IMG/VR virus record: IMGVR_UViG_3300038556_000046
Span: 1-34,258 of that record
Length of the DNA: 34,258 nt
Direction: 5' to 3' (one strand)
Source: a virus
Taxonomy: Duplodnaviria > Caudoviricetes
Shown here: in pieces, positions 9,334 to 23,907 of the stretch
How positions within the stretch are numbered: the first letter of the stretch is position 1
Layout: every line of letters starts with the position of its first letter
Notes under the pieces: model-generated
Seen by the model: only the letters and a program-made list of their open reading frames with translations
What the model was told of the DNA's origin: nothing
Databases searched by the model: none
Program-made: the position numbers and the translations under genes

Positions 9334-10005
9334 ATGAGCCGCAAGCAAGCAGACGGTTGGAAGGAAATCGACGCCACGGAAGACAATCCGTTGGTGCCGG
9401 TCCCTCATGGCGACCTCTGGTTTGTGGCCACGTGCCAGTCGGGAGGCGAGCGCGCCGCCGTCGCTGCGCTGCAGCGGTACGAGCATGTCGCATGGTTTCC
9501 GCAGATGACGCTCTGGCACAAGTTCGAGCGCGACAAGCGTCGTGTGAAAATGAACCGACCCGTCTTCCCCGGCTATCTGTTCGTCAGCCCGCGCGTGGAA
9601 AGCGAGCTCGTCCCGCTCGCTTCGACCGCTGCCGACATTTCGGACGTGGCGCTCCGTAATGGGCTGATCAGTCGGGCTCGACGACAGCGTGTCGTCGCTG
9701 GCGTGACCGAAGCCGGTCAATGGATCAAATGGCTCTGCGGCGACCTAGAGAAGTCCCGTATTGCTGCCGGCAAGCTTCGCGACCTGTCCGACGCACAAGG
9801 CCATGGCGTTTTCATCAAATGGAAGAACGCGCCACCCCCTACCCTGCAGGCTGGCGACAGAGTGCAAGCGACCTCCGGTCCATTCGCAGGCTTTGCTGGC
9901 ATCGTCGAAAAGTCAGCCGAAGGCCGGACCCGTGCGCTCCTGCATATCTTCGGCCGCCCGACGCCTGCAGACTTCGACACATCAGAGCTGCGAAAGATCG
10001 CGTAA
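9334..10005 (+). CDS. NusG/RfaH-like transcription antitermination factor (NGN plus KOW)
   Basis: WFVATCQSGGE...PVFPGYLFV (NGN) and GDRVQATSGPFAGFAGIV...LLHIFGRPTP (KOW); last early gene. Confidence 0.92.
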   Translation: MSRKQADGWKEIDATEDNPLVPVPHGDLWFVATCQSGGERAAVAALQRYEHVAWFPQMTLWHKFERDKRRVKMNRPVFPGYLFVSPRVESELVPLASTAADISDVALRNGLISRARRQRVVAGVTEAGQWIKWLCGDLEKSRIAAGKLRDLSDAQGHGVFIKWKNAPPPTLQAGDRVQATSGPFAGFAGIVEKSAEGRTRALLHIFGRPTPADFDTSELRKIA

Positions 10006-10429: not shown

Positions 10430-11848
10430 ATGGCTACCGTTCGTGACCACACTGCCCTGACATTCGGTGGACACTGGCTGGCAAATAGTGGTGGACCGTC
10501 AGCATATGGGCAGCCTGCCCTGCTGACGTTTTCATTTCCGACCTCTGCGCCACCATCAATGGTTGCGCGACCAGGGGCAGCTGCGGCGGCAAGTTTTCAA
10601 CCTTTCAACGAGATTGAAAAGGTCCAGGCGCGCTTAGCTCTCCAGCAATTCGCGGACGCATCGGGTCTCACATTCGTCGAGGTTTCGGGCAATGCCGGCG
10701 ATATTCGATTTGGCTATATCCAAGAAAACACCGTTAATCACGGCAACTTTGGAGGAATTGGCTTTGGACCGTATAACGCGTTTTATTCCTTCAATAACGT
10801 AACATATCCTAATCGGGATAGTTATCTTCTTACTTTAGGCACAGACTTAACTGCGGGAGGAGATACTTTCTACAATCTCAATTATCGGCAGCAGTGGCAA
10901 AATGACAACAATATGGTCCATACCCTACTTCACGAGATTGGTCATGCGATCGGCCTCAAGCACCCTCACGAAGGTGAAAATCAGCTCGATAAATTGATTG
11001 ATAATACGTCGACGACTGTAATGAGCTATGTCAACAATCAAAAGCGAGTTACTTCGCTCGGCCCTCTTGATATTGAAGCGATTCAAGTTCTTTATAGCAC
11101 AAATGACAAGGATGGAATTCAATATGCTAATTGGAGCTTTAATGGAACGACGGAAACATTCACTCTCATAGCTAAAGACTCGGGTGGCCCCCTGCGCGGC
11201 ACCGGGGCGCGTGACATCATCCAGGGAGGCCCAGGTGCCGATGTCGTTACGGCTGGCGACGGCAATGATGTCATCTCACCTGGAAAAGGTCTTGACAATG
11301 TCTCGGGCGGTCCTGGACTGGATTGGCTCATTCTTAATGTCGCTCGCAGCAGTGCAAGGCTGGAATTTCGGCCGAATGATTTTTGGACAGTGAGTTCGGC
11401 TGAGGGCAACAAGCTGATCTTCGACATTGAGCGGCTCCAGTTTCTCGACCAGATCGTCGCTTTCGATGCCGGCGCCGCGCAAACGTATCGATTGTATCAA
11501 GCGGCGTTCGCTCGCACGCCGGACCAGGGCGGCCTGAGTTTTTGGGTCGACAAGGTGGATGATGGCGCCGCGCTCCGAGACGTCGCAAGTGGCTTCATCG
11601 GTTCTCCTGAGTTTGAGAGCAGCTATGGGATGACTGCATCTCCGGAACGATACGTCGAGAAGTTCTATCAAAACGTGCTTGGACGATCCGGCGAGGCGTC
11701 GGGCGTCGTGTTCTGGACAAATGAGCTAAAGCGCGGCGTTCCACTAGCCGAGGTTTTGCTGGGATTCGCCGAGAGTTCTGAAAATGTGGCGCGGCTTGCT
11801 CCCATGATTGGGCAAGGCGTCGCGCTCGATCCTTCCTATTTCGTGTAA
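10430..11848 (+). CDS. Serralysin-like M10 zinc metalloprotease with RTX repeats and C-terminal DUF4214 domain (moron)
   Basis: HEIGHAIGLKH zinc motif, TVMSY Met-turn, GGPGAD/GDGND/GGPGLD repeats, and RLYQAAFARTPDQGGLSFW...FIGSPEF...YQNVLGR. GGAGG SD; low GC. Confidence 0.92.
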   Translation: MATVRDHTALTFGGHWLANSGGPSAYGQPALLTFSFPTSAPPSMVARPGAAAAASFQPFNEIEKVQARLALQQFADASGLTFVEVSGNAGDIRFGYIQENTVNHGNFGGIGFGPYNAFYSFNNVTYPNRDSYLLTLGTDLTAGGDTFYNLNYRQQWQNDNNMVHTLLHEIGHAIGLKHPHEGENQLDKLIDNTSTTVMSYVNNQKRVTSLGPLDIEAIQVLYSTNDKDGIQYANWSFNGTTETFTLIAKDSGGPLRGTGARDIIQGGPGADVVTAGDGNDVISPGKGLDNVSGGPGLDWLILNVARSSARLEFRPNDFWTVSSAEGNKLIFDIERLQFLDQIVAFDAGAAQTYRLYQAAFARTPDQGGLSFWVDKVDDGAALRDVASGFIGSPEFESSYGMTASPERYVEKFYQNVLGRSGEASGVVFWTNELKRGVPLAEVLLGFAESSENVARLAPMIGQGVALDPSYFV

Positions 11849-11998
11849 GCAGTACATCGCTAAATCAAAGTCTTCTGAGATTTTCGCATAGCCGCGACTG
11901 GTGTCTTTGAATTCCGCGGCACCGAATTCAGCAAAATCAATGATTACGGGCCGCGTATGATCGCCATCCCGTGCCTTTGCCAGAACACTGATCGGAGG

Positions 11999-12021
11999 CC
12001 GCGCCGCTCAGACCGGCGCGG
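11999..12021 (+). promoter_or_regulatory. CUCAGAC stem-loop copy 1, between SD and terS start
   Basis: CCGCGCCG-CTCAGAC-CGGCGCGG; GGAGG at 11994-11998, ATG at 12030. Confidence 0.7.
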
Positions 12022-12029
12022 ACAACGCC

Positions 12030-12302
12030 ATGCCTAAAGTAGGACTGGATAGGGCCAAGACCGGCCGCGCTAAGGGGACCCCGAACAAGACGACGGCGCT
12101 GCTTAAGGATGCGCTGTTGCAGGCCGCGACCGAAGCCGGCGGCAAGGATGGCCTTGTCGGCTATCTCAAAATGCGCGCGCTCGACACGCCCGGCCCGTTC
12201 CTCGCGCTGCTTGGCAAGGTTCTGCCGCTGCAGGTCACTGGCGAGGGAGACGGGCCGGTCCAGGTCGTGATCAAGCGCTTTGCCTCAGATCCAGCTTCCT
12301 AA
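12030..12302 (+). CDS. terS: Terminase small subunit
   Basis: GRAKGTPNKTT...FLALLGKVLPLQVTGEGDGPV; directly upstream of and overlapping terL. Confidence 0.8.
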   Translation: MPKVGLDRAKTGRAKGTPNKTTALLKDALLQAATEAGGKDGLVGYLKMRALDTPGPFLALLGKVLPLQVTGEGDGPVQVVIKRFASDPAS

Positions 12303-13656
12303 CGGCTGGACCCCGCGGCCTTACCAAAGGCCGATGTGGGATTATCTCGAGCGTGGCGGCGATCGTGCGATCGGGATCTGGCATAGGCGAGCCGGCAAGG
12401 ACGACGTTCTCTTGCACCGGACAGCCATTGCGGCGTTCGAACGGCCTGCAGCCTACTGGACCTGTCTGCCGGAATACGCGCAGGCTCGGAAGGCTCTATG
12501 GTCCGCGGTCGACGCTCACACCGGCCGGCGCCGCATTGACCAGGCCTTCCCGCATGAATTGCGCGAGGCCACGAATGAACAAGAGATGTTCATCCGGTTC
12601 AAGAACGGATCGACCTGGCAGCTGGTCGGCTCCGATCGTTACGACAGCCTGGTCGGCGCTGGCGTCGCTGGCGTCACGTTCTCCGAATGGGCTTTGGCCA
12701 ATCCGTCGGCATGGGGCTACATTCGGCCGATGGTCGAGGAAAACCGCGGATGGGCGGCTTTCATCACCACGCCGCGCGGCCGGAACCACGCCAAGGCCAT
12801 GCACGACATGGCCAAGGCAAACCCGCGCTGGTTTGCCGAAGTTCTGCCGGTCACGGCGACGGGCGCCCTGACCAAGCAGCAGCTCGACGAAGGCCTGGCG
12901 GAGTACAAGAGCCTGTACGGCGCCGACGTCGGCCAGGCGCAGTTCGAACAGGAATATCTCTGTTCCTTCAACGCCGCGATTCTCGGCGCCTTCTATGCCC
13001 GCGAAATGCTGGCGTTGCGGTCGCAAGGCCGAGTCATGGAATTCGAGCCGGTCGACGGCCTGCCGATCCATCGGGCTTGGGATATTGGCGTCCGCGACGA
13101 CACGTCAATTTGGTGGTTCCAGGTCATCAGCGGCCGACCCTGGATCCTCGACTGCTACACGGCGTCAGGCGCTGGCGTCGATCATTATGCCGACGTCGTC
13201 CAGAACCGCGGATGGGAATGGACGACCGGGACCGACTTCGTCCCGCATGACGCCAAGCAGCGCGTTTGGGCTATGGACGGCGCGCCGCAGACGCTTGAAG
13301 CCATGGTGAAGCACGGCCTGCGGCCGCAGCTCATCAAGGACGCCAGCAAGCTCGACGGGATCAACGCGGCCCGCGCGACGCTGGCCAAGGCCGTCTTCCA
13401 TCCGCGTTGCGAGGATCCCGGCCTGTCCGCGCTCGAGATGTATCGGCGCGAATGGGACGACGAACGCAAGATGTTCAAGGCCAACGAAATCCACGACTGG
13501 ACGTCGCACCTGGCCGACGCATTCCGCTATCTCGCGCTGTCATGGCGCGCCGCGCCGGCCCGCCTCGAGCTGCCGCGCGTCAGGGTACCGAAACCCGGTC
13601 AGCTCAGGCTACCGCCGCCGCCGGACGTCTCACGCAAGGGGAGAATTGCCGTATGA
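12280..13656 (+). CDS. terL: Terminase large subunit
   Basis: PRPYQ, Walker A WHRRAGKD, Walker B VTFSE, ITTPRG, nuclease WDIG..DDT and SHLADAFRY; TTG start. Confidence 0.93.
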   Translation: MPQIQLPNGWTPRPYQRPMWDYLERGGDRAIGIWHRRAGKDDVLLHRTAIAAFERPAAYWTCLPEYAQARKALWSAVDAHTGRRRIDQAFPHELREATNEQEMFIRFKNGSTWQLVGSDRYDSLVGAGVAGVTFSEWALANPSAWGYIRPMVEENRGWAAFITTPRGRNHAKAMHDMAKANPRWFAEVLPVTATGALTKQQLDEGLAEYKSLYGADVGQAQFEQEYLCSFNAAILGAFYAREMLALRSQGRVMEFEPVDGLPIHRAWDIGVRDDTSIWWFQVISGRPWILDCYTASGAGVDHYADVVQNRGWEWTTGTDFVPHDAKQRVWAMDGAPQTLEAMVKHGLRPQLIKDASKLDGINAARATLAKAVFHPRCEDPGLSALEMYRREWDDERKMFKANEIHDWTSHLADAFRYLALSWRAAPARLELPRVRVPKPGQLRLPPPPDVSRKGRIAV

Positions 13657-13668
13657 GGATGATCCCGC

Positions 13669-16002
13669 TTGGCTGACGAAGCCGATCCGCTCGACGACAC
13701 CGCCGACAAGCCGTCCAAGCGCAGCAAGAGCGCCAAGGGATGGCTTGACCTGATCGCGCAGGCCGAAAAGGCTTTCTCGGCGTGGCAGGACAAGGCCGAC
13801 GGGATCGAAAAGCTCTATGCCGACCTGGAAAAGCTGTCCGGCATTGGCCGCGACCGCGAGTTTCAGCTGTTTTGGGCCAATATCCAAGTCCTTGGACCGT
13901 CGATCTACTCGCGCGCGCCGGTCCCGGTCGTCGTCCCGCGCTTCAAGGATCGGCGCCCGCTGCCGCGGACCGCGTCCGAACTGCTTGAACGCTGCGCCAT
14001 CGTTCAATTCGAGCTCGAGGATATCGACAGCGTCATGCGGCTTGCCCGCGACGATCTCAACATCGTTGCCCGCGGCGCCTTGTGGGCCCGCTACGTCGAG
14101 AAAGACGGCGAGGATTCCGAGACGGTATGCGTCGAGCACGTCGACCGCCGCGATTTCCTGCACGACCCGGCCCGCAAGTGGAAGGAAGTCGATTGGGTTG
14201 CGCGCCGCTCATGGCTGACCAAGGAAGCGGCCCGCAAGCGCTTCGCCAAGACGTCCGGCGACGCCTACAAGACCCTGGCCTATGGCAAGCCGAAGGACCG
14301 CGACGGCGCCGACGACGGCCGGATGAAAGCAGCCGTTTGGGAACTGTGGAGCAAGAGCCAGGATCTCGTCGTTTGGGTTTCCGAGGGCTGCGACGTCGTT
14401 CTGGACCAGGACAAGCCGCATCTGAAGCTGCAGGACTTCTTCCCCTGCCCGCGGCCAGCCTACGCCACGACGAAGCCGCGGACCCTGCAGCCGATCCCTG
14501 ACGCGCTGTTCTACAAGGACCAGCTCGAGGAAATTAACGAAGCGACGGCCCGCATTGCCGCGCTGACCGAAGCGCTGCGCGTCGCCGGCTTCTATCCCGC
14601 AGGCTCCGGCGAAATCGCCGACGCCGTCGAAGCCGCCATGGCGTCGACCGACAGTCGCGTGAAGCTCATCCCGATTTCGAATTGGGCGGCGCTCGGCGGC
14701 TCCGGCGCCAAGGACATGGTCATCTGGTGGCCGATCGCTGACGTCGCCAAGGTCGTCAGTGAGCTCGTCGCCATTCGCAAGCAGCTGATCGAAGACGTTT
14801 ACCAGATCATGGGGCTGTCGGACATCATGCGCGGCTCGACCGAGGCCAGCGAAACGCTCGGCGCGCAGCAGTTGAAGTCGCAATACGGCTCGGTCCGGAT
14901 CCGCGACAAGCAGTCCGAACTGGTCCGCATCGCCCGCGACCTGACGCGCATCGTCGCCGAGATCATGGCAGAGAATTTCAAGGGCAAGACGCTCTTGGAT
15001 ATGTCGCAACTCGAGATCCCGACCGACGCCGAGATCGCCAAGCAGGTCGCGCCGCTCGAGAAGATGGCGCGCCAGATTACCGCCGAGCTGCGCCAGGCTG
15101 AAACCGACCCGCGACTGGTCGAGGCCGCGCAGAAGAACGCGGAAGCCGCTCAACAGATCCTGCAGGAGGCGCAACAGCGGCTGCAGGGCATTGGTCAGCA
15201 GATCGAAAAGCTGAAAGAGACGGTCACCATCGAAAAGGTCGTCGATTTCCTGCGCGACCAGCGGCTGCGGCCGTTCGTGCTCGACATCGAAACCGACAGC
15301 ACGATCGCGCCGGACGAAAACGCGGCCAAGCAGCGCGCTACGGAATTCGTCACGGCCGTCGGCGGCGCCATGAACCAGGCCGCGCCGCTGCTGATGCAAC
15401 TGCCGCAGGCCGGTCCGTTGCTCGCCGAGACGCTGAAATACCTGGCCAGCCAATACCGCGCCGGCCGCCAGCTCGAGCAAGAGATCGAGACGTTCGCGGA
15501 CGGCCTGAAACAGCAGGCCGGACAGCCGAAGCCGCCGGATCCCGCGCAGGCGAAGGCCGAAGCCGACGCCAAGGCCACTGCCGACGCCGCTGCGATCGAA
15601 CAGCAACGCGCGGCCGCCGAGCTGCAGGACAAGGAAGTCGAGCGCGCCGAGCGCGTCGCGGCGCTGCGCGAGCGCCAGGCCGAAGAGGCCGCGCGCGACG
15701 CCATGCGCCAGCGCGAGATCGCGAACAAGGACCGCGAGGCCGGGATCAAGCACCAGGCGCTGATCGACGCTGGCGACATGGCCGCGCGCAAGCACGCGCA
15801 GGACATGGATATTGGCGCGCTGCAGCTCGACAAGCTCCGGCTCGAGATTGGCCGCGTCCAGACGCAGACAGCCGCGACGATCGCCACGACGGACGCGAAC
15901 ATCGCCGCGACCGAGGCCAAGACCGACGCCAACCTTGAAGCGCAGGCCGCAGGGCTCGTCATGAAGCAGGACGCCGCGGCCCTAACGGCGATTGAACCAT
16001 GA
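13669..16002 (+). CDS. Portal protein (long C-terminal coiled coil)
   Basis: 777-aa ORF after terL; TLGAQQLK motif and a helical Gln/Ala-rich barrel-like C-terminus. Confidence 0.85.
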   Translation: MADEADPLDDTADKPSKRSKSAKGWLDLIAQAEKAFSAWQDKADGIEKLYADLEKLSGIGRDREFQLFWANIQVLGPSIYSRAPVPVVVPRFKDRRPLPRTASELLERCAIVQFELEDIDSVMRLARDDLNIVARGALWARYVEKDGEDSETVCVEHVDRRDFLHDPARKWKEVDWVARRSWLTKEAARKRFAKTSGDAYKTLAYGKPKDRDGADDGRMKAAVWELWSKSQDLVVWVSEGCDVVLDQDKPHLKLQDFFPCPRPAYATTKPRTLQPIPDALFYKDQLEEINEATARIAALTEALRVAGFYPAGSGEIADAVEAAMASTDSRVKLIPISNWAALGGSGAKDMVIWWPIADVAKVVSELVAIRKQLIEDVYQIMGLSDIMRGSTEASETLGAQQLKSQYGSVRIRDKQSELVRIARDLTRIVAEIMAENFKGKTLLDMSQLEIPTDAEIAKQVAPLEKMARQITAELRQAETDPRLVEAAQKNAEAAQQILQEAQQRLQGIGQQIEKLKETVTIEKVVDFLRDQRLRPFVLDIETDSTIAPDENAAKQRATEFVTAVGGAMNQAAPLLMQLPQAGPLLAETLKYLASQYRAGRQLEQEIETFADGLKQQAGQPKPPDPAQAKAEADAKATADAAAIEQQRAAAELQDKEVERAERVAALRERQAEEAARDAMRQREIANKDREAGIKHQALIDAGDMAARKHAQDMDIGALQLDKLRLEIGRVQTQTAATIATTDANIAATEAKTDANLEAQAAGLVMKQDAAALTAIEP

Positions 16003-16334
16003 AGCGCGGAAGCTGGATTTACGACAAGTCGACCGGCGAGCTCGTCGAGCGCGAGGAATTCTATGCGCGCCAGCCGGCGCCGAAGCGCTCCGGCCTCGCC
16101 GCGCCGCTGATCATGGGCGACAGCATGGCGCCCGTTCAATCGATGCTCGACGGCAAGATGTACGACAGCAAGTCGGCCTTGCGAGCAACCTACAAGGCCG
16201 CAGGCGTCGTCGAGGTCGGCAACGACCCGGCCCGGCTCCGGCCTCGCCAGCGTCCGAAGGTCGACCGGAAGGCGATCAAGGACACGCTCGACCGGGCTGC
16301 GGCCCGCTTCAACCGCGGCGAGCGCGCCGCTTAA
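15999..16334 (+). CDS. Hypothetical head-module protein
   Basis: SMLDGKMYDSKSALRATYKAAGVVEVGND; ATGA-coupled between portal and scaffold. Confidence 0.8.
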   Translation: MKRGSWIYDKSTGELVEREEFYARQPAPKRSGLAAPLIMGDSMAPVQSMLDGKMYDSKSALRATYKAAGVVEVGNDPARLRPRQRPKVDRKAIKDTLDRAAARFNRGERAA

Positions 16335-16342
16335 ACTTCGCA

Positions 16343-16357
16343 TCCTCTCAGACAGGA
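16343..16357 (+). promoter_or_regulatory. CUCAGAC stem-loop copy 2, sequestering the scaffold SD
   Basis: TCCT-CTCAGAC-AGGA; the AGGA lies 7 nt before ATG 16365. Confidence 0.65.
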
Positions 16358-16364
16358 ACAAGCC

Positions 16365-17543
16365 ATGTCCGATATCGACGCCGGCCAGCCGGACGCCGCG
16401 CCCGTTGCTGCGCCTGATGTAGTCTCGACGCCCAACCCGATTTCGACCGAGCGGGAGCCGGTCACCGACAATCAGCCGGCCGACGAAGGCAAGCCTGCGA
16501 AGGCGCCGACGGCTCGCGAAGCGCTCGAGCGCGCGGCCGCCAAGGTCGAGGCCGACGCGGATCCCGCGAAGCCGGTCAAGTCAGACCCGCCGCAGCGCGC
16601 CGACGACGGCAAGTTCGCGGCCAAGGATGGCGCTAAGGACGCCGGCAAGGACGCCGCGAAGCCTGCCGACGCCAAGGCGCCCGACGCCAAGGCCGATCCG
16701 GCGCGCCAGGACGCCGCTGCGAAGGGTCAGCCGCCGGAGGAAGGCCGCCAGCCTGCCGACCCCGCGCAGAAGCCGGCGAGCGGCCAGGGCGAAGCGCCCG
16801 CGCGCTTCTCTGCCGACGCCAAGGCCGCATGGGCGGCGGCGCCGGAGCCGGTCAAGGCCGAAGTCGCGCGCATGGAACGCGAGCTGACGCAGGGGATCGA
16901 GAAATACCGCGGCGACGCCGAGGCTTTCGAGCCGGTCCGCAAATTTCACGACATGGCCAAGGCCAGCGGCAACACGCTCGACAAGGTCCTGGAGACCTAT
17001 GTCGGCCTGGAGACCATGATCGACAAGAATCCGATCGTGGCGCTCGAGCGCATTTGCGAAATGAAGGGCTTCACGCTCCGCCAGGTCGCCGAGCATGTCA
17101 TGGGGCAGGCGCCGGACGCGCAGGCCGCGCAGCGCGACAGCGAAACGATGGCGTTGAAGCGCGAAATCCACGGCCTGAAACAGCAGCTCGGCCAGGTCAG
17201 CGGCACGCTCGAGCAACAGAAGACCGATCGCGTCAACGCGCAGGTCGCCGAATTCGCGGACAAGCATCCGCGCTTCGACGAACTGGCGCAGGACATCGCC
17301 TTTTTCATCGAATCCGGCCGGACGACCGACCTGGCCGAAGCCTATTCACTGGCGGAACGGTTGAACCCGGCGCCAGTCCCTGCATCCGCGCCGAAGCCGG
17401 CGCCGGACCCGTCCGCGGCTCAGACCCGCAAGGGCGAAAAATCGATCAACGGAGCGCCAACCCCCGGTTCAGACCCGGTCACCAGGCAACCGTCATCCTC
17501 AATCCGGGAATCGCTGCTTAAGGCCGCCGGCCGCGCAGCCTGA
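16365..17543 (+). CDS. Capsid scaffolding protein
   Basis: Disordered N-terminus with RADDGKFA, coiled coils, FADKHPRFDEL; immediately upstream of the capsid gene. Confidence 0.8.
   Translation: MSDIDAGQPDAAPVAAPDVVSTPNPISTEREPVTDNQPADEGKPAKAPTAREALERAAAKVEADADPAKPVKSDPPQRADDGKFAAKDGAKDAGKDAAKPADAKAPDAKADPARQDAAAKGQPPEEGRQPADPAQKPASGQGEAPARFSADAKAAWAAAPEPVKAEVARMERELTQGIEKYRGDAEAFEPVRKFHDMAKASGNTLDKVLETYVGLETMIDKNPIVALERICEMKGFTLRQVAEHVMGQAPDAQAAQRDSETMALKREIHGLKQQLGQVSGTLEQQKTDRVNAQVAEFADKHPRFDELAQDIAFFIESGRTTDLAEAYSLAERLNPAPVPASAPKPAPDPSAAQTRKGEKSINGAPTPGSDPVTRQPSSSIRESLLKAAGRAA
17415..17478 (+). promoter_or_regulatory. YUCAGAC stem-loop copies 3 and 4, at the 3' end of scaffold upstream of the capsid gene
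   Basis: GCGG-CTCAGAC-CCGC (17415-17429) and CCGG-TTCAGAC-CCGG (17464-17478). Confidence 0.6.
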
Positions 17544-17566
17544 ACCACAATTCAGGAGTGGCACCT

Positions 17567-18583
17567 ATGCCATTGACCAACGTCGAAAAGAACCAGGAAA
17601 TCCTGTCGCTGGCGCTCGAGGATCGCTCGACCGGCTATCAGGACCTGGTCAGCAACTCCAACGCGCTTCTGGCCGTCTTGAAGCGCAAGGGCAAGTTCAA
17701 GACCTATAGCGGCCCGACCATCCGCGAGCGGCTGCTCTACAATAAGACCGGATCGGCCGTTTGGTACAACGGCTATGACTTCCTGAATCCGGTCCCGGTC
17801 GAGCTGTTCAACGACGCGCAGTTCACGCCCAAGATGTGCGCTGTCGCCGTCGTCCTCACGAATGAGGAGATCCTGAACAATCAGGGTACGAACCAGCTCA
17901 TGGATGTGATGGAATCGCACATCCAGGCCGCCGAGAATGAACTGCTCGACGAAGTCGACATTTCGCTCCACGGCAACGGCACGCGCTTCGGCGGCAAGGA
18001 ACTCGGCGGCCTGCAGCTGGCCGTTCCGACCGTCGTCAACTCCGGCACCTATGGCGGCATTGACCGCGCGGCCAATCCGGTTTGGCGCACCAGCGTTTTC
18101 GACGCGCAGTCGGACTTCGCTGGCATTGGAACGCAGGTCAACGCGACGACCATCCGTCCGATGCTCAACAGCATCATGACGCGCCGGTCGCGCGGCCGTC
18201 AGGCGGCGGATCTGCTTCTCATGTCGCCGGAGCACTATGCCGCTTATGACGCCGCGACCGTGGCCATTCAGCGCATCAATGACGAAAACGGGCTCGGCAA
18301 GCTCGGTTTCTCGACGCTGAAATACACGGGCGCCGGCCGAACGGCCGACATCGTCCAGGAGGGCGGGATCGGTTCGAACATGGCGGCGAATACGACCTAC
18401 GGCCTGGACACGTCGAACATGTGGCTGCGGTACCATCCGGAGCGCAATTTCGACAAGATCGGCCGTTCGATGATGCCGATCAATCAGGACGCCGTCGTCC
18501 AGTATATCGGCTTCATGGGCGAGCTCACGATGACCAATCCGCTGTTTCAGTGGAAGCTCATCGACAGCAACCCGGCAACCTGA
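17567..18583 (+). CDS. Major capsid protein
   Basis: About 338 aa after scaffold; AGGAG SD before ATG 17567; GTYGGIDRA..WR and FMGELTMTNP segments; followed by a hairpin. Confidence 0.88.
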   Translation: MPLTNVEKNQEILSLALEDRSTGYQDLVSNSNALLAVLKRKGKFKTYSGPTIRERLLYNKTGSAVWYNGYDFLNPVPVELFNDAQFTPKMCAVAVVLTNEEILNNQGTNQLMDVMESHIQAAENELLDEVDISLHGNGTRFGGKELGGLQLAVPTVVNSGTYGGIDRAANPVWRTSVFDAQSDFAGIGTQVNATTIRPMLNSIMTRRSRGRQAADLLLMSPEHYAAYDAATVAIQRINDENGLGKLGFSTLKYTGAGRTADIVQEGGIGSNMAANTTYGLDTSNMWLRYHPERNFDKIGRSMMPINQDAVVQYIGFMGELTMTNPLFQWKLIDSNPAT

Positions 18584-18610
18584 CGCAAGCCTGACGTCGG
18601 AATGATCTTG

Positions 18611-18640
18611 GCGGCGCCCTACGGGGCGTCGCTTCCCCTC
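18611..18640 (+). terminator. Hairpin after the capsid gene (weak terminator or mRNA stabiliser)
   Basis: GCGGCGCCC-TACG-GGGCGTCGC followed by only TTCCCCTC. Confidence 0.55.
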
Positions 18641-18667
18641 ATCATGTCTTAGCGAAAGGGCTGAACA

Positions 18668-19015
18668 ATGCCTTACATCCCCGAAACTCCGAACCTTGGC
18701 TTTCCGAGGCTCGACCTTGCGCAGGCCGCGTCGAGCGCGGCCGGTCGATCGACGCCTTGGAAGGTCGGCGACATCATCCGCGTGACCAAGGACAATCAGA
18801 CCGCGTTCGAAGCGATCTATCTGGCCGGCGCCGCTGGCGTCACGGCCGGCGGCCAGGTCACTTACAATCCGACGACGCTCGTCGTGACCAACGGCGCCGG
18901 CACGCCCGGCCCGACGGCCATCGCCGCGACCGCGCTCGCTGCCGTGACCGCTGGACTTTACGGCTGGTTCCGGATCGGCCGCCGCGACAGCGTCCCGCCT
19001 GTCGGCCTTCCCTGA
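18668..19015 (+). CDS. Putative capsid decoration/cement protein
   Basis: 115 aa, Gly/Ala/Thr-rich with YGWF near the C-terminus; directly after the capsid gene. Confidence 0.65.
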   Translation: MPYIPETPNLGFPRLDLAQAASSAAGRSTPWKVGDIIRVTKDNQTAFEAIYLAGAAGVTAGGQVTYNPTTLVVTNGAGTPGPTAIAATALAAVTAGLYGWFRIGRRDSVPPVGLP

Positions 19016-19031
19016 CGCCTGACGCCTGACG
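19011..19031 (+). repeat. (CCTGACG)x3 tandem repeat
   Basis: Exact 7-mers at 19011, 19018 and 19025; the same 7-mer occurs at 18579 and 18590. Confidence 0.85.
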
Positions 19032-19043
19032 GCGCTTAACGAC

Positions 19044-19078
19044 GCTCGCCGCGGACCATCTGCGGCGAGCTTTTCCTT
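19044..19078 (+). terminator. Intrinsic terminator
   Basis: GCTCGCCGCGGA-CCA-TCTGCGGCGAGC followed by TTTTCCTT. Confidence 0.8.
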
Positions 19079-19082
19079 GCAA

Positions 19083-19097
19083 CCTCTCAGACAGGAA
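19083..19097 (+). promoter_or_regulatory. CUCAGAC stem-loop copy 5, over the SD of the 19105 gene
   Basis: CCT-CTCAGAC-AGG; the 15-mer CCTCTCAGACAGGAA is identical to 16344-16358. Confidence 0.65.
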
Positions 19098-19104
19098 TAG
19101 CCTC

Positions 19105-19932
19105 ATGTCCGCAGCAGCCGCAGCCGGCCCGACCTCCAACCTCACCGTCGTCACCTTCAAGACGATCGCCGTTCCGAACGAAGCCAAGTCGAGGAAGGAA
19201 GGTCGTCCCGTTTTCGACGATCTCGACGTCTGCGAAATCCGCTTCGCAGCGAACAAGATGACCGCGGCCGTCTTCCCGGCTCACGATCCGGAGCCGAACG
19301 CGACGCGCGAGCGCGGCGAGATCGTCACCTATGCCATGCTCTACAATGAGCAATTCCGGAAGTTTAAGGCGCAGGAGGCGCAGGACGTCGCCGGGACGCC
19401 GCTGTCGGAACTGACGTTCCTGACCGAGGCCAAGCGGCGCGAGCTGCGCGCGCTCAACATTCACACCGCCGAAGCGCTGGCCGCGCTCGACGGTCCGCCG
19501 CTGAAACAGCTCGGCATGGGCGGCCGCGAGTGGAAGAACCAGGCGCAGGCCTATATCGACGCCGCGGCCGGATCGGCTGATGTGACCGCCATGGCCGCGC
19601 AGATCGCCGAGCTGCAGCGCCAGCTCGCCGAGGCTACCGCGCCCGCTCCGGCGCCGGCCAAGGGCGGCCGCAAGGCCGGCAAGCAGGCCAAGGCCGCCGA
19701 GCCGGTCGAGGCTGACGAAGGCGACGACGGCGAGGATGACGCCGAGCCGGACGAAGACGCCGAAGACGACGACGTCAAGCCGATCGACGAACTGACCGAC
19801 GCCGAGCTGAAAGCCTACATCAAGGAAGCGACCGGCGAGGCTGTCCGCGGCAACGTCGGCCGCGACACGCTGATCGAACGCGCGACCAAGATCGCACGCG
19901 GCGAGGCCGACGACGAAGGCAAGGGCGCCTGA
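19105..19932 (+). CDS. Late protein with HhH-like and C-terminal HeH/Rho-N-like motifs (putative nucleic-acid binder)
   Basis: ELRALNIHTAEALAALDGPPLKQLGMGG, an acidic linker, and IDELTDAELKAYIKE...GRDTLIERA. Confidence 0.75.
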   Translation: MSAAAAAGPTSNLTVVTFKTIAVPNEAKSRKEGRPVFDDLDVCEIRFAANKMTAAVFPAHDPEPNATRERGEIVTYAMLYNEQFRKFKAQEAQDVAGTPLSELTFLTEAKRRELRALNIHTAEALAALDGPPLKQLGMGGREWKNQAQAYIDAAAGSADVTAMAAQIAELQRQLAEATAPAPAPAKGGRKAGKQAKAAEPVEADEGDDGEDDAEPDEDAEDDDVKPIDELTDAELKAYIKEATGEAVRGNVGRDTLIERATKIARGEADDEGKGA

Positions 19933-19934
19933 TC

Positions 19935-20645
19935 ATGAGCCTGCTTTCCGTCATCAGGCGCGTCAGCGTCCTGGTCGGCCTTCGCCGGCCGAACGTCGTC
20001 GCGACGGCGCCTGATGCGTCGCATGCGTCGCAGATGGCGGAATTCGCCCGCGTCGAGGCTGAAACCCTCGCCGGCCGACATGACTGGTCAGGGATCACCG
20101 TCCCTGGCCATCGCTTCACGACGTCCGGCGCCGCGCTGCAATATGGCGCGCTGCCGGACGACTTCGCGCGCTTCACCTTCGCGGGCGGGATCTATGGGCC
20201 ATGGGGGCGCATCAACGGCCCGCTGCAAAAGACGGACTGGTCGAGGATCACGGCTTATCCGCATGTCGCCGGATCGTTGAACGGCTCGTTTCGCCAGACG
20301 GCCCGCGGCGTCGAAATCTATCCGACGGCGCCAGCCGGCCAGCCGATGCGCTTCGACTATGTGTCGAAGAACCTCTACGCCGACAAGGACGGCAATCCCA
20401 AGCCCGAATGGAGCGCGGACACCGACGTCTGCTTGATTCCGGAGCGGCTGATCGAACTTGGCGTCAAGTGGCGATGGCTGCAGTTCAAGGGCTTCGACTA
20501 TGGCGAGGCCATGAAGGACGCGGAAATCGCGTTCGAACAGCTTGCCGGCAGCGACAACGGCGGCCGCGGCATTCTGAAAGCCGGTCGCGCTCGCCTCAAC
20601 GCGCAGGAATATGCCTATCCTGCCGTGCTCGGTCCGAAGCCATGA
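19935..20645 (+). CDS. Head-tail adaptor / tail tubular protein A-like
   Basis: Synteny; WSADTDVCLIPERLIELGVKWRWLQFKGFDY. Confidence 0.7.
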   Translation: MSLLSVIRRVSVLVGLRRPNVVATAPDASHASQMAEFARVEAETLAGRHDWSGITVPGHRFTTSGAALQYGALPDDFARFTFAGGIYGPWGRINGPLQKTDWSRITAYPHVAGSLNGSFRQTARGVEIYPTAPAGQPMRFDYVSKNLYADKDGNPKPEWSADTDVCLIPERLIELGVKWRWLQFKGFDYGEAMKDAEIAFEQLAGSDNGGRGILKAGRARLNAQEYAYPAVLGPKP

Positions 20646-22617: not shown

Positions 22618-23907
22618 TTGAAAGCACCGAAGGCGCCGGATCCCTACGCCACCGCGCAGGCGCAAGCTCAGATGAACAAGGAAACCGCGATCAGCCAGGC
22701 CGGCTTGAACGCGATGAACCAATACACGCCCGATGGGAACCTGGAATACAGCCAGGAAAGCACATGGGCGGACGGAACGCCGAAATTCCGCGTCACGCAG
22801 ACGCTGTCGGACAGCAATAAGCGGCTCCACGATCTCGGCAATCAGACCGAAGAGAACCTGGCGACGATCGGCGTCGACCAGTCCAAGCGGATGGGCGACC
22901 TGCTTGCGACGCCGCTGTCGTTCGCGGGGCTCGGCAAGGTGCCGACCGGCCCGAATCTCGACGACCCGCGCTTCGCCATGCCGACCGGCGACGTCCCGAC
23001 CTTCAACGGTCCGGATGCGACGCTGGTCGACCGTCGCGCGATCGACGATAATCAGGCGCTCGAGGGGCGGCTGATCGACCTTGGCCGGCGCCGGCTCGAC
23101 CCTGCGATGGCGACGCGCCGCGCCGAGCTCGACGCGAGCCTGGCCGACAAGGGGATCAAGGTCGGATCCGCAGCCTATGGCGAGGCCATGCGCGGCAACG
23201 CCGAGGCGGAGAACGACGCGCTCAGTCAGCTGATCTTGACCGGCCAGGGCCAGGCCTTCGGCCAGTCCAGGGACCGCGCGCAGAGTGACTTTTCGCAGGA
23301 CATCGCGCGAACCGGGCAATTCTTCACGCAAGGCCAGACGAACGCGCAGAACGCCTTCGCGCAGGCTCTGGCCGCGCGTCAGCAGCTGGCGTCGGAATCC
23401 GACACCGGATGGCAGCGCGCGCTCGCGGCCTTTGGCGCTTCGATGCAGGGGCGGCAGCAGACGATCGACGAAATGCTGGCCGAACGCCAGACGCCGATCA
23501 ACGAACTGTCGGCGCTCATGTCCGGATCGCAGGTCGCCAAGCCGGCCTGGACCGCGACGCCTCAGACGCAGATCCAGCCGGCCGACCTCGCCGGCCTGGT
23601 CCAGTCCAACTATCAGGCGAAGATGCAGGGCTATAGCGGCATGCTGTCCGGCATTGGCTCGCTTGCGGGCAATATTCTCGGCTTCGGCCTGTCCAGGTCC
23701 GACCGCAGGCTGAAAACCGACATTCAGCGGCTCGGCGAGCTGCCGAACGGTCTCGGCGTCTATCTCTACCGCTTCAAGTCCGGCGGACCGTTCCAGATTG
23801 GCCTGATGGCCGACGAAGTCGCGCAGCTTCACCCTGACGCGGTTCATGTCATGCCCGACGGCTTCCTGGCGGTCGACTATGCCAAGGCAACGCAGGAGGC
23901 CGCTTGA
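22618..23907 (+). CDS. Ejection/pilot-type virion protein with C-terminal peptidase S74 chaperone domain
   Basis: KAPKAPDP...NQYTPDG N-terminus, Gln/Ala-rich body, SDRRLKTDI...GLMADEV....PDAV...VDY; AGGAGG SD. Confidence 0.8.
   Translation: MKAPKAPDPYATAQAQAQMNKETAISQAGLNAMNQYTPDGNLEYSQESTWADGTPKFRVTQTLSDSNKRLHDLGNQTEENLATIGVDQSKRMGDLLATPLSFAGLGKVPTGPNLDDPRFAMPTGDVPTFNGPDATLVDRRAIDDNQALEGRLIDLGRRRLDPAMATRRAELDASLADKGIKVGSAAYGEAMRGNAEAENDALSQLILTGQGQAFGQSRDRAQSDFSQDIARTGQFFTQGQTNAQNAFAQALAARQQLASESDTGWQRALAAFGASMQGRQQTIDEMLAERQTPINELSALMSGSQVAKPAWTATPQTQIQPADLAGLVQSNYQAKMQGYSGMLSGIGSLAGNILGFGLSRSDRRLKTDIQRLGELPNGLGVYLYRFKSGGPFQIGLMADEVAQLHPDAVHVMPDGFLAVDYAKATQEAA

Follow-up and report, generated by a model that had tools for sequence, protein, structure and literature searches.

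What does one and the same small RNA loop do at several translation starts of a phage late operon? The question is raised by record IMGVR_UViG_3300038556_000046 of IMG/VR, analysed here over its whole stretch of 34,258 nucleotides (nt), hereafter the window. The window is a temperate podophage with the gene order integrase, repressor, NusG paralog, terS, terL, portal, a gene of 111 amino acids (aa), putative scaffold, capsid, a 115-aa gene, a gene starting at position 19105 (gene 19105) and tail genes; the terS and scaffold labels come from position and a helical model, with no family match behind them. An initial annotation had noticed five hairpins with a YUCAGAC loop and variable stems, which it read as a recurring strand-specific RNA element at head-module translation starts. 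All five lie where it had put them, on the + strand, with 8, 4, 4, 4 and 3 Watson-Crick pairs respectively. We call them A (before terS), B (before the scaffold gene), C(-150) and C(-100) (inside the scaffold gene) and D (before gene 19105; Table 1). As developed below, such hairpins very probably are a real translational control element, and in one branch of relatives the scaffold gene contains an exact complement of their loop.

The bare heptamer is no evidence by itself: as the initial annotation had cautioned, YTCAGAC is found at chance frequency (6 matches vs 6.04 expected), the sixth copy, which it had left out, lying at 23561 with a 2-bp stem. The stems are what distinguishes the others, since five copies have a stem of at least three pairs vs a mean of 0.136 in shuffled sequences, and five were reached in 0 of 500 shuffles. 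When, in a post-hoc check, all 7-mers with at least 80% of their copies stemmed were considered, the best of them reached at most 3 in 100 shuffles vs 4 for CTCAGAC. We also note a CTCAGAT 7-mer in the terS/terL overlap (12283-12291), with three flanking pairs placed one step out from the loop.

The capsid of the window is 57% identical to that of Rhizobium phage RHph_I3_18 and 39% to that of Brucella phage Tb; the window phage belongs with the Tb-like podophages, which carry the hairpin element family-wide. We compared 94 related loci together with the window segment (95 sequences, not dereplicated), clustered into 60 capsid groups for a test in which the position was fixed first and the hairpin sought afterwards. 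Of 52 capsid groups, 49 have a hairpin immediately ahead of the scaffold start, and of 58 groups 47 have one ahead of the 19105 gene, several of the misses being loop variants, vs 0/58 for the capsid gene, 0/42 for the 115-aa gene, 0/48 for portal, 0/55 for a tail gene and 2/53 for the 111-aa gene. A hairpin resembling site A precedes the first late gene in 31 of the 47 groups with enough flank. Over the 95 sequences, a stem of at least three pairs is formed by 294 of 410 sense copies vs 4 of 81 antisense copies. Of 249 hits from scans of IMG/VR that started from the motif, 213 immediately precede scaffold, 19105-like or terS-like genes, and the loop is kept across capsids only ~40% identical. 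The recurring, strand-specific element is thus borne out by its conservation and covariation in relatives. Among nine named phages examined, Tb, Mwe-JY13 and RHph_I3_18 have it, and Mx8, Mx9, BUCT555, ppBjS10J-1, 45A6 and ctMlz233 do not.

Some relatives show peculiarities of their own. Microcystis phage Mwe-JY13 has sites B and D, and the complement E described below, as in Tb-branch phages of alphaproteobacteria, and its stated cyanobacterial host is worth checking. In another locus (L378), an inserted gene precedes the 19105-like one and is equipped with a site D hairpin as well, so that copies stand 1392 and 1717 nt after the capsid start. The relatives of ppBjS10J-1 (L458-L511) display a different common loop, CAUCAAY, in small hairpins at scaffold and 19105-like starts (23 of 54 distinct scaffolds), with little covariation; this is possibly an orthogonal version of the system.

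At B and D the consensus reads RCA-N-YCY-CUCAGAC-RGR: the 3' arm is formed by the Shine-Dalgarno sequence (SD), and 6-19 nt separate the end of the loop from the start codon. The loop opens with a YUNR motif, C-U-C-A in 96 of 96 B/D sites (sites chosen with one loop mismatch allowed), and its chief variants are CUCAAAC and CUCAGAA. Three stem pairs covary, with 105 double-sided changes (0/500 shuffles), in sites that had been pre-selected for at least three pairs and that mostly alternate between two SD registers. The stems of A and C are more varied than those of B and D, and the latter are marginally stable in isolation. The relatives broadly split into a Tb branch, which has the complement E and no array of C sites, and the window's branch, which has C and no E; the cultured phage RHph_I3_18, which belongs to the window's branch, combines B, C-like copies and E. 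U-G closing pairs are present in the Tb branch, and a single-stranded CA flank accompanies 74 of 96 window-branch sites vs 1 of 47 Tb-branch sites. As to the CsrA/RsmA class, which we take to be marked by GGA in the loop, here GGA sits in the stem arm and the loop is CUCAGAC.

The two hairpins that the initial annotation had placed ahead of the capsid start are indeed at these positions, but both are inside the scaffold coding sequence (CDS), in two different codon phases, and the capsid SD is not covered. Such extra copies lie 60-260 nt before the capsid start, at 1-4 per locus, in 59 of 60 groups. In the C(-100) phase the loop is read through the Ser codon TCA in 50 of 51 cases, vs 4.7% in capsid genes; in the C(-150) phase a T-ending codon precedes Gln in 46 of 46. 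When synonymous constraint was scanned over nine late genes, C(-100) gave the highest peak and C(-150) the second highest. The two in-gene copies therefore fix rare codons in the scaffold gene, in two phases.

A natural experiment is provided by the relatives of Tb, in which 52 groups comprise 21 with both B and D, 22 with neither, 1 with B only and 8 with one site undetermined. Gene gain or loss was rejected as the cause of hairpin presence, the core head gene content being the same with and without hairpins. A residue scan of eight genes over hairpin-bearing and hairpin-less phages gave its best signal in a scaffold segment, S-E-G...P-A-R-F. This segment first looked like a near-perfect RNA-binding determinant of the P22 type; inspection of its codons revealed instead an element at the nucleotide level, which we call E, and a rule based on its Arg was broken by held-out loci, as hairpin-less phages have this Arg and one hairpin-bearing phage lacks it. 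The codons of E are fixed (Ser TCT in 33/34, Glu GAG in 34/34) and spell GTCTGAG, which is the loop sequence in reverse complement. Within the scaffold CDS, E is located 300-450 nt downstream of B, usually at the tip of a hairpin of ~80 nt; the closing stem of this hairpin coincides in part with the P-A-R-F codons and shows covariation (59 double-sided changes over both helices, 0/500 shuffles).

E follows the hairpins closely. Of 66 groups, all 33 with hairpins have E and none of the 33 without hairpins does, with 7 changes on the capsid tree. Sixteen of these groups were held out, and E was present in 8/8 hairpin-bearing and 0/8 hairpin-less of them; for these, labels were assigned by hand and E was scored by peptide pattern; in one negative the segment could not be located, and of 22 new groups 6 were undetermined and not included. 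Two loci, L380 and L386, have kept B, D and E although most of their genes resemble those of hairpin-less phages. Besides, loop and complement change together: in L431 the loops at B and D are YUCGGAC and E is GUCCGAG (loop position 4), and in L419 the loops are CUCAGAA and E is UUCUGAG (loop position 7). Position 4 is invariant in the 96 window-branch sites and is altered only where E is altered. The duplexes predicted between E and the sites are mostly of 7-11 bp and reach into the 5' arm of the hairpin.

Accommodating these data, the hairpins that cover the ribosome-binding sites of terS, scaffold and 19105 are predicted, from sequence comparison, to control translation by pairing of their CUCAGAC loop with a complementary GUCUGAG RNA loop, and we hold this prediction with middling confidence. 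RNA-RNA pairing is favoured over a protein operator because the loop of the Tb branch has an exact, co-varying RNA complement inside the scaffold gene. Pairing would begin loop to loop, aided by the YUNR motif; YUNR loops are typical of loop-loop antisense recognition (PMC4485353). It would then extend into the pyrimidine arm opposite the SD and free the SD, the opening rather than closing direction being our proposal. Ribosomes translating the scaffold gene would melt E and undo the pairing, which would tie the translation state of scaffold to initiation at terS, scaffold and 19105, with a feedback on scaffold itself. In the window's branch an antisense RNA over the sites would take the place of the sense-strand E. 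More tentatively, we can imagine an RNA-only circuit within the phage late mRNA, in which a loop in the scaffold CDS (or, in the window's branch, an antisense RNA with several loops) kisses the ribosome-binding-site loops of the terminase gene, the scaffold gene and a nucleic-acid-binding gene after the capsid, so that ribosome traffic on scaffold, without any regulatory protein, might determine when head assembly and packaging take place and in what stoichiometry.

Several observations weigh against the pairing of loops. In addition to the pre-selection of stems and the alternation of SD registers mentioned above, the phylogenetically independent pairs agree on E and hairpin in 5 of 5 cases with p=0.0625, and five pairs cannot reach p<0.05. 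One locus (L430) changed both loop and E with no restored pair. Cofolding opened the SD in only 1 of 3 cases tried, with a program that cannot form kissing loops. The signs for the strand on which E folds are mixed: its outer stem shows 18 G-U vs 11 A-C appositions, and the sense strand folds lower in only 10 of 28 cases. An exact complement is moreover the same motif on the other strand, so that a protein might recognise E on an antisense RNA. In the CAUCAAY-loop sister clade, the scaffold gene showed no E-like complement.

The window's branch itself is the main difficulty. No GUCUGAG occurs on the sense strand of the window, and the branch shows no sense-strand partner within 9 kb of the capsid gene; an E-like 7-mer stands behind B in only 3 of 49 of its loci, with no shared context, and no synonymous peak marks a partner in the nine late genes scanned. 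Here we predict that the partner is transcribed antisense over C, B or D. Where a start site has the CUCAAAC loop, C tends to have it too (12/16 vs 14/40 groups, Fisher p=0.009), but this concordance is not significant on the tree, and wobble at C shows no clear strand. An antisense RNA over C, which would display GUYUGAG loops, is thus weakly supported. A sigma-70 scan found no antisense promoter near the sites, alphaproteobacterial promoters being of a kind that it may miss.

The initial annotation had made the hairpins operators for a phage protein: the RNA element stands, whereas no candidate protein tracked the element once codons were checked. A translational operator nevertheless is a real possibility, if short of probable: a phage protein would bind the loop, stabilise the weak stem and repress terS, scaffold and 19105. 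Within this same estimate the likeliest binder would be free scaffold, by an autoregulation like that of P22, and then the 19105 product; the C copies would be a sink, and E would act either as an accessory anti-operator or, on an antisense RNA, as a decoy. A loop that stays constant on free stems agrees with this, as do the conservation of the loop across divergent capsids, the stems of B and D, too weak to close alone, and the overlap of hairpin and ribosome-binding site with the SD as 3' arm, as in operators of this class. So does the CA flank of the window's branch, for which an operator is a strong rival as it needs no partner RNA. Besides, the binder would be phage-encoded because no host regulon was found: among 401 genomes of the host order, 4 show the pattern (two prophage pairs, two singletons), and a reversed control gave 2.

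The candidates for such a binder fare less well. The scaffold determinant dissolved into E and its Arg does not follow the hairpins, as seen above, and the fold of a scaffold fragment matched nothing at Z of 5 or more and nothing in the PDB. Neither the 19105 protein nor the 111-aa gene before scaffold tracks the element, and position 4 of the loop changes only with E. The predicted 19105 model consists of a beta domain, an HhH/SAM-like helical domain (residues 97-157), which counts in favour of a binder, a long helix and a small C-terminal helical domain. The HhH/SAM-like domain has a borderline VIA Z of ~8 to the RAD51C N-terminal domain and to NusA-AR2 (root-mean-square deviation ~2, 57-61 residues); Foldseek found no match of the model in the PDB. 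Among the fold comparisons as a whole, Atlas searches named no family. The 111-aa gene (15999-16334) is basic and always stands before scaffold, with a conserved core and an interchangeable N-terminus, Cys-bearing in some relatives and with a different short motif in others. It was rejected as a binder, its N-terminus varying among hairpin-bearing phages and being common with phages of another loop.

Might a host RNA be the partner instead, namely 16S rRNA, whole or as a fragment, with complementarity to the loop and 5' arm? The host 16S contains a 13-nt perfect complement of site B of the window, including the CA flank, a score reached in 0 of 300 shuffled 16S sequences, and one host with a GUUUGAG variant carries a phage with only AAAC-type loops. 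This match is however post hoc; over the 6.8-kb rRNA operon p is ~0.01 (29/3000), and ~0.1 without the anti-SD arm (292/3000). Positions -1 (52/96) and -7 (1/96) do not fit, the 16S segment is itself a hairpin, and two prophages in GUUUUAG and GUUUGAG hosts keep CUCAGAA, CUCAAAC or CUCAGAC loops and do not follow their host. We also presume the segment to be buried in the mature 30S subunit. Further host-prophage pairs were sought in 401, 301, 101, 3, 301 and 1 genomes, which gave few prophages. Altogether a 16S partner appears very improbable.

Loading sites for an antiterminator, boxB- or ops-like, which the initial annotation had also envisaged, are hardly credible either. A NusG paralog with a KOW domain (9334-10005) does lie upstream of the late operon, and a terminator-like hairpin adjoins site D. 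But the spacing to start codons is fixed, with the SD in the stem; the copies are spread over 7 kb and not placed beside one promoter; E is inverted; and in Tb, which has B, D and E, no annotated gene is a NusG paralog. Location near a promoter, independence from start codons and a cognate factor always present, which we take to mark boxB and ops sites, were not what we found. The NusG paralog itself is likely a late antiterminator, and its protein matched only two (L033 and L085) of the 94 loci. Finally, double-stranded DNA sites (for packaging or a transcription factor) or mere chance are far-fetched: E is an inverted copy and the bare 7-mer has chance frequency, but the arms vary freely yet stay complementary, stemmed copies are almost all on the sense strand, and the genes behind site A run from 69 to 215 aa, the window terS matching only some of them.

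Table 1. Coordinates of the hairpins and of the genes and signals around them in the window
Feature	Position	Strand	Remarks
Site A	11999..12021	+	8-bp hairpin, CUCAGAC loop; loop end 16 nt before terS start; predicted pairing probability 0.95-1.0
Putative small terminase gene (terS)	12030..12302	+	label from position before terL; PHROG 11043, unknown function
Site B	16340..16357	+	GCA flank and 4-bp hairpin; 3' arm is the scaffold SD (AGGA); loop end 11 nt before ATG; isolated hairpin -1.4 kcal/mol
Putative scaffold gene	16365..17543	+	carries the C sites; PHROG 25516 'virion structural protein'
Site C(-150)	17415..17429	+	hairpin inside scaffold CDS, Ala-Gln-Thr phase
Site C(-100)	17464..17478	+	hairpin inside scaffold CDS, Gly-Ser-Asp phase; UUCAGAC loop
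Major capsid gene	17567..18583	+	ATG 17567; PHROG 9953; own start without hairpin
Intrinsic-terminator-like hairpin	19044..19078	+	adjoins site D on its upstream side; Tb has an annotated terminator at the same place
Site D	19079..19095	+	GCA flank and 3-bp hairpin; 3' arm starts the SD of gene 19105; loop end 12 nt before ATG; isolated hairpin +0.5 kcal/mol
Gene 19105	19105..19932	+	275 aa, function unknown; predicted model pLDDT 85.9

Two other features of the region deserve mention. Between the NusG paralog and terS (10430-11848) lies a moron that encodes a matrixin-type metalloprotease with RTX calcium-binding repeats and a C-terminal DUF4214 domain. Short CCTGACG repeats occur at 18576-18600, just past the capsid stop, and at 19011-19032, past the stop of the 115-aa gene, where three are in tandem.

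The initial annotation had not recognised the motif as a named one, and this agrees with our searches: no named family was found, and the covariance models of Rfam 15, run over 11500-20000 of the window at E up to 5, returned one chance hit (18.9 bits vs a cut-off of 60). Literature searches showed no description of it; an unnamed prior candidate in the data of PMC5737381 and PMC10690425 is possible, for example DNAVirus_1057, for which Brucella, Chelativorans and Ochrobactrum hosts are listed.

In tailed phages, terminase, scaffold and capsid come from one late transcript and yet in very different amounts; how this is achieved is known for few systems. The element offers a precise, family-wide handle on this question, with three regulated starts, lineages that naturally gained or lost it and natural matched changes. 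If loop-loop pairing is true, a structural gene would harbour a kissing-loop switch with several targets; if a protein binds, scaffold feedback of the P22 type would be extended to a regulon including the terminase. Either way, the uncharacterised 19105 family would be assigned to the group of head and packaging control genes.

Among known systems, we take the C4 RNA of phage P1 and the CI RNA of P4 to be loop-loop antisense systems comparable to these hairpins. The MS2 coat operator, too, is a hairpin that lies at a translation start and has fixed bases in its loop, which is unlike CUCAGAC. In the Min Jou long-distance pairing of MS2, a coding-region segment pairs with a translation start and ribosomes melt the pairing; this concerns a single-stranded RNA phage, with one target, and the pairing is linear and repressing. 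By contrast, the pairing proposed here is between hairpin loops, in the late operon of a double-stranded DNA phage, with several targets. The YUNR U-turn antisense systems, plasmid copy-number and toxin-antitoxin RNAs, are alike (PMC4485353) in the YUNR loop, the exact complementary loop, the matched changes and the target at a translation start. They differ in that the Tb-branch partner is on the same strand, inside the CDS of a structural gene, with 7-11 nt of complementarity and several targets up to 2.3-2.6 kb away. The T4 gp43 and RegA operators (PMC3014915) likewise combine a translation-start hairpin with invariant loop bases, and RegA acts on many mRNAs; their loops differ from ours, and RegA sites are without structure. 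Closest in subject is the scaffolding-protein autoregulation of P22 (10.1101/2022.12.13.520362), a post-transcriptional control centred on the scaffold gene of a podophage; it is known as protein-mediated and limited to a single gene, whereas here three genes share one motif and there is an RNA complement, and a kinship of the scaffolds was not found by PDB match. The ingredients are hence known ones: SD-occluding hairpins, antisense kissing, P22 scaffold autoregulation, T4 operators and Min Jou pairing. What is new, not being found in Rfam or in the literature searched, the data of PMC10690425 and PMC5737381 aside, is a common seed loop at three late-gene starts together with its complement inside the scaffold CDS.

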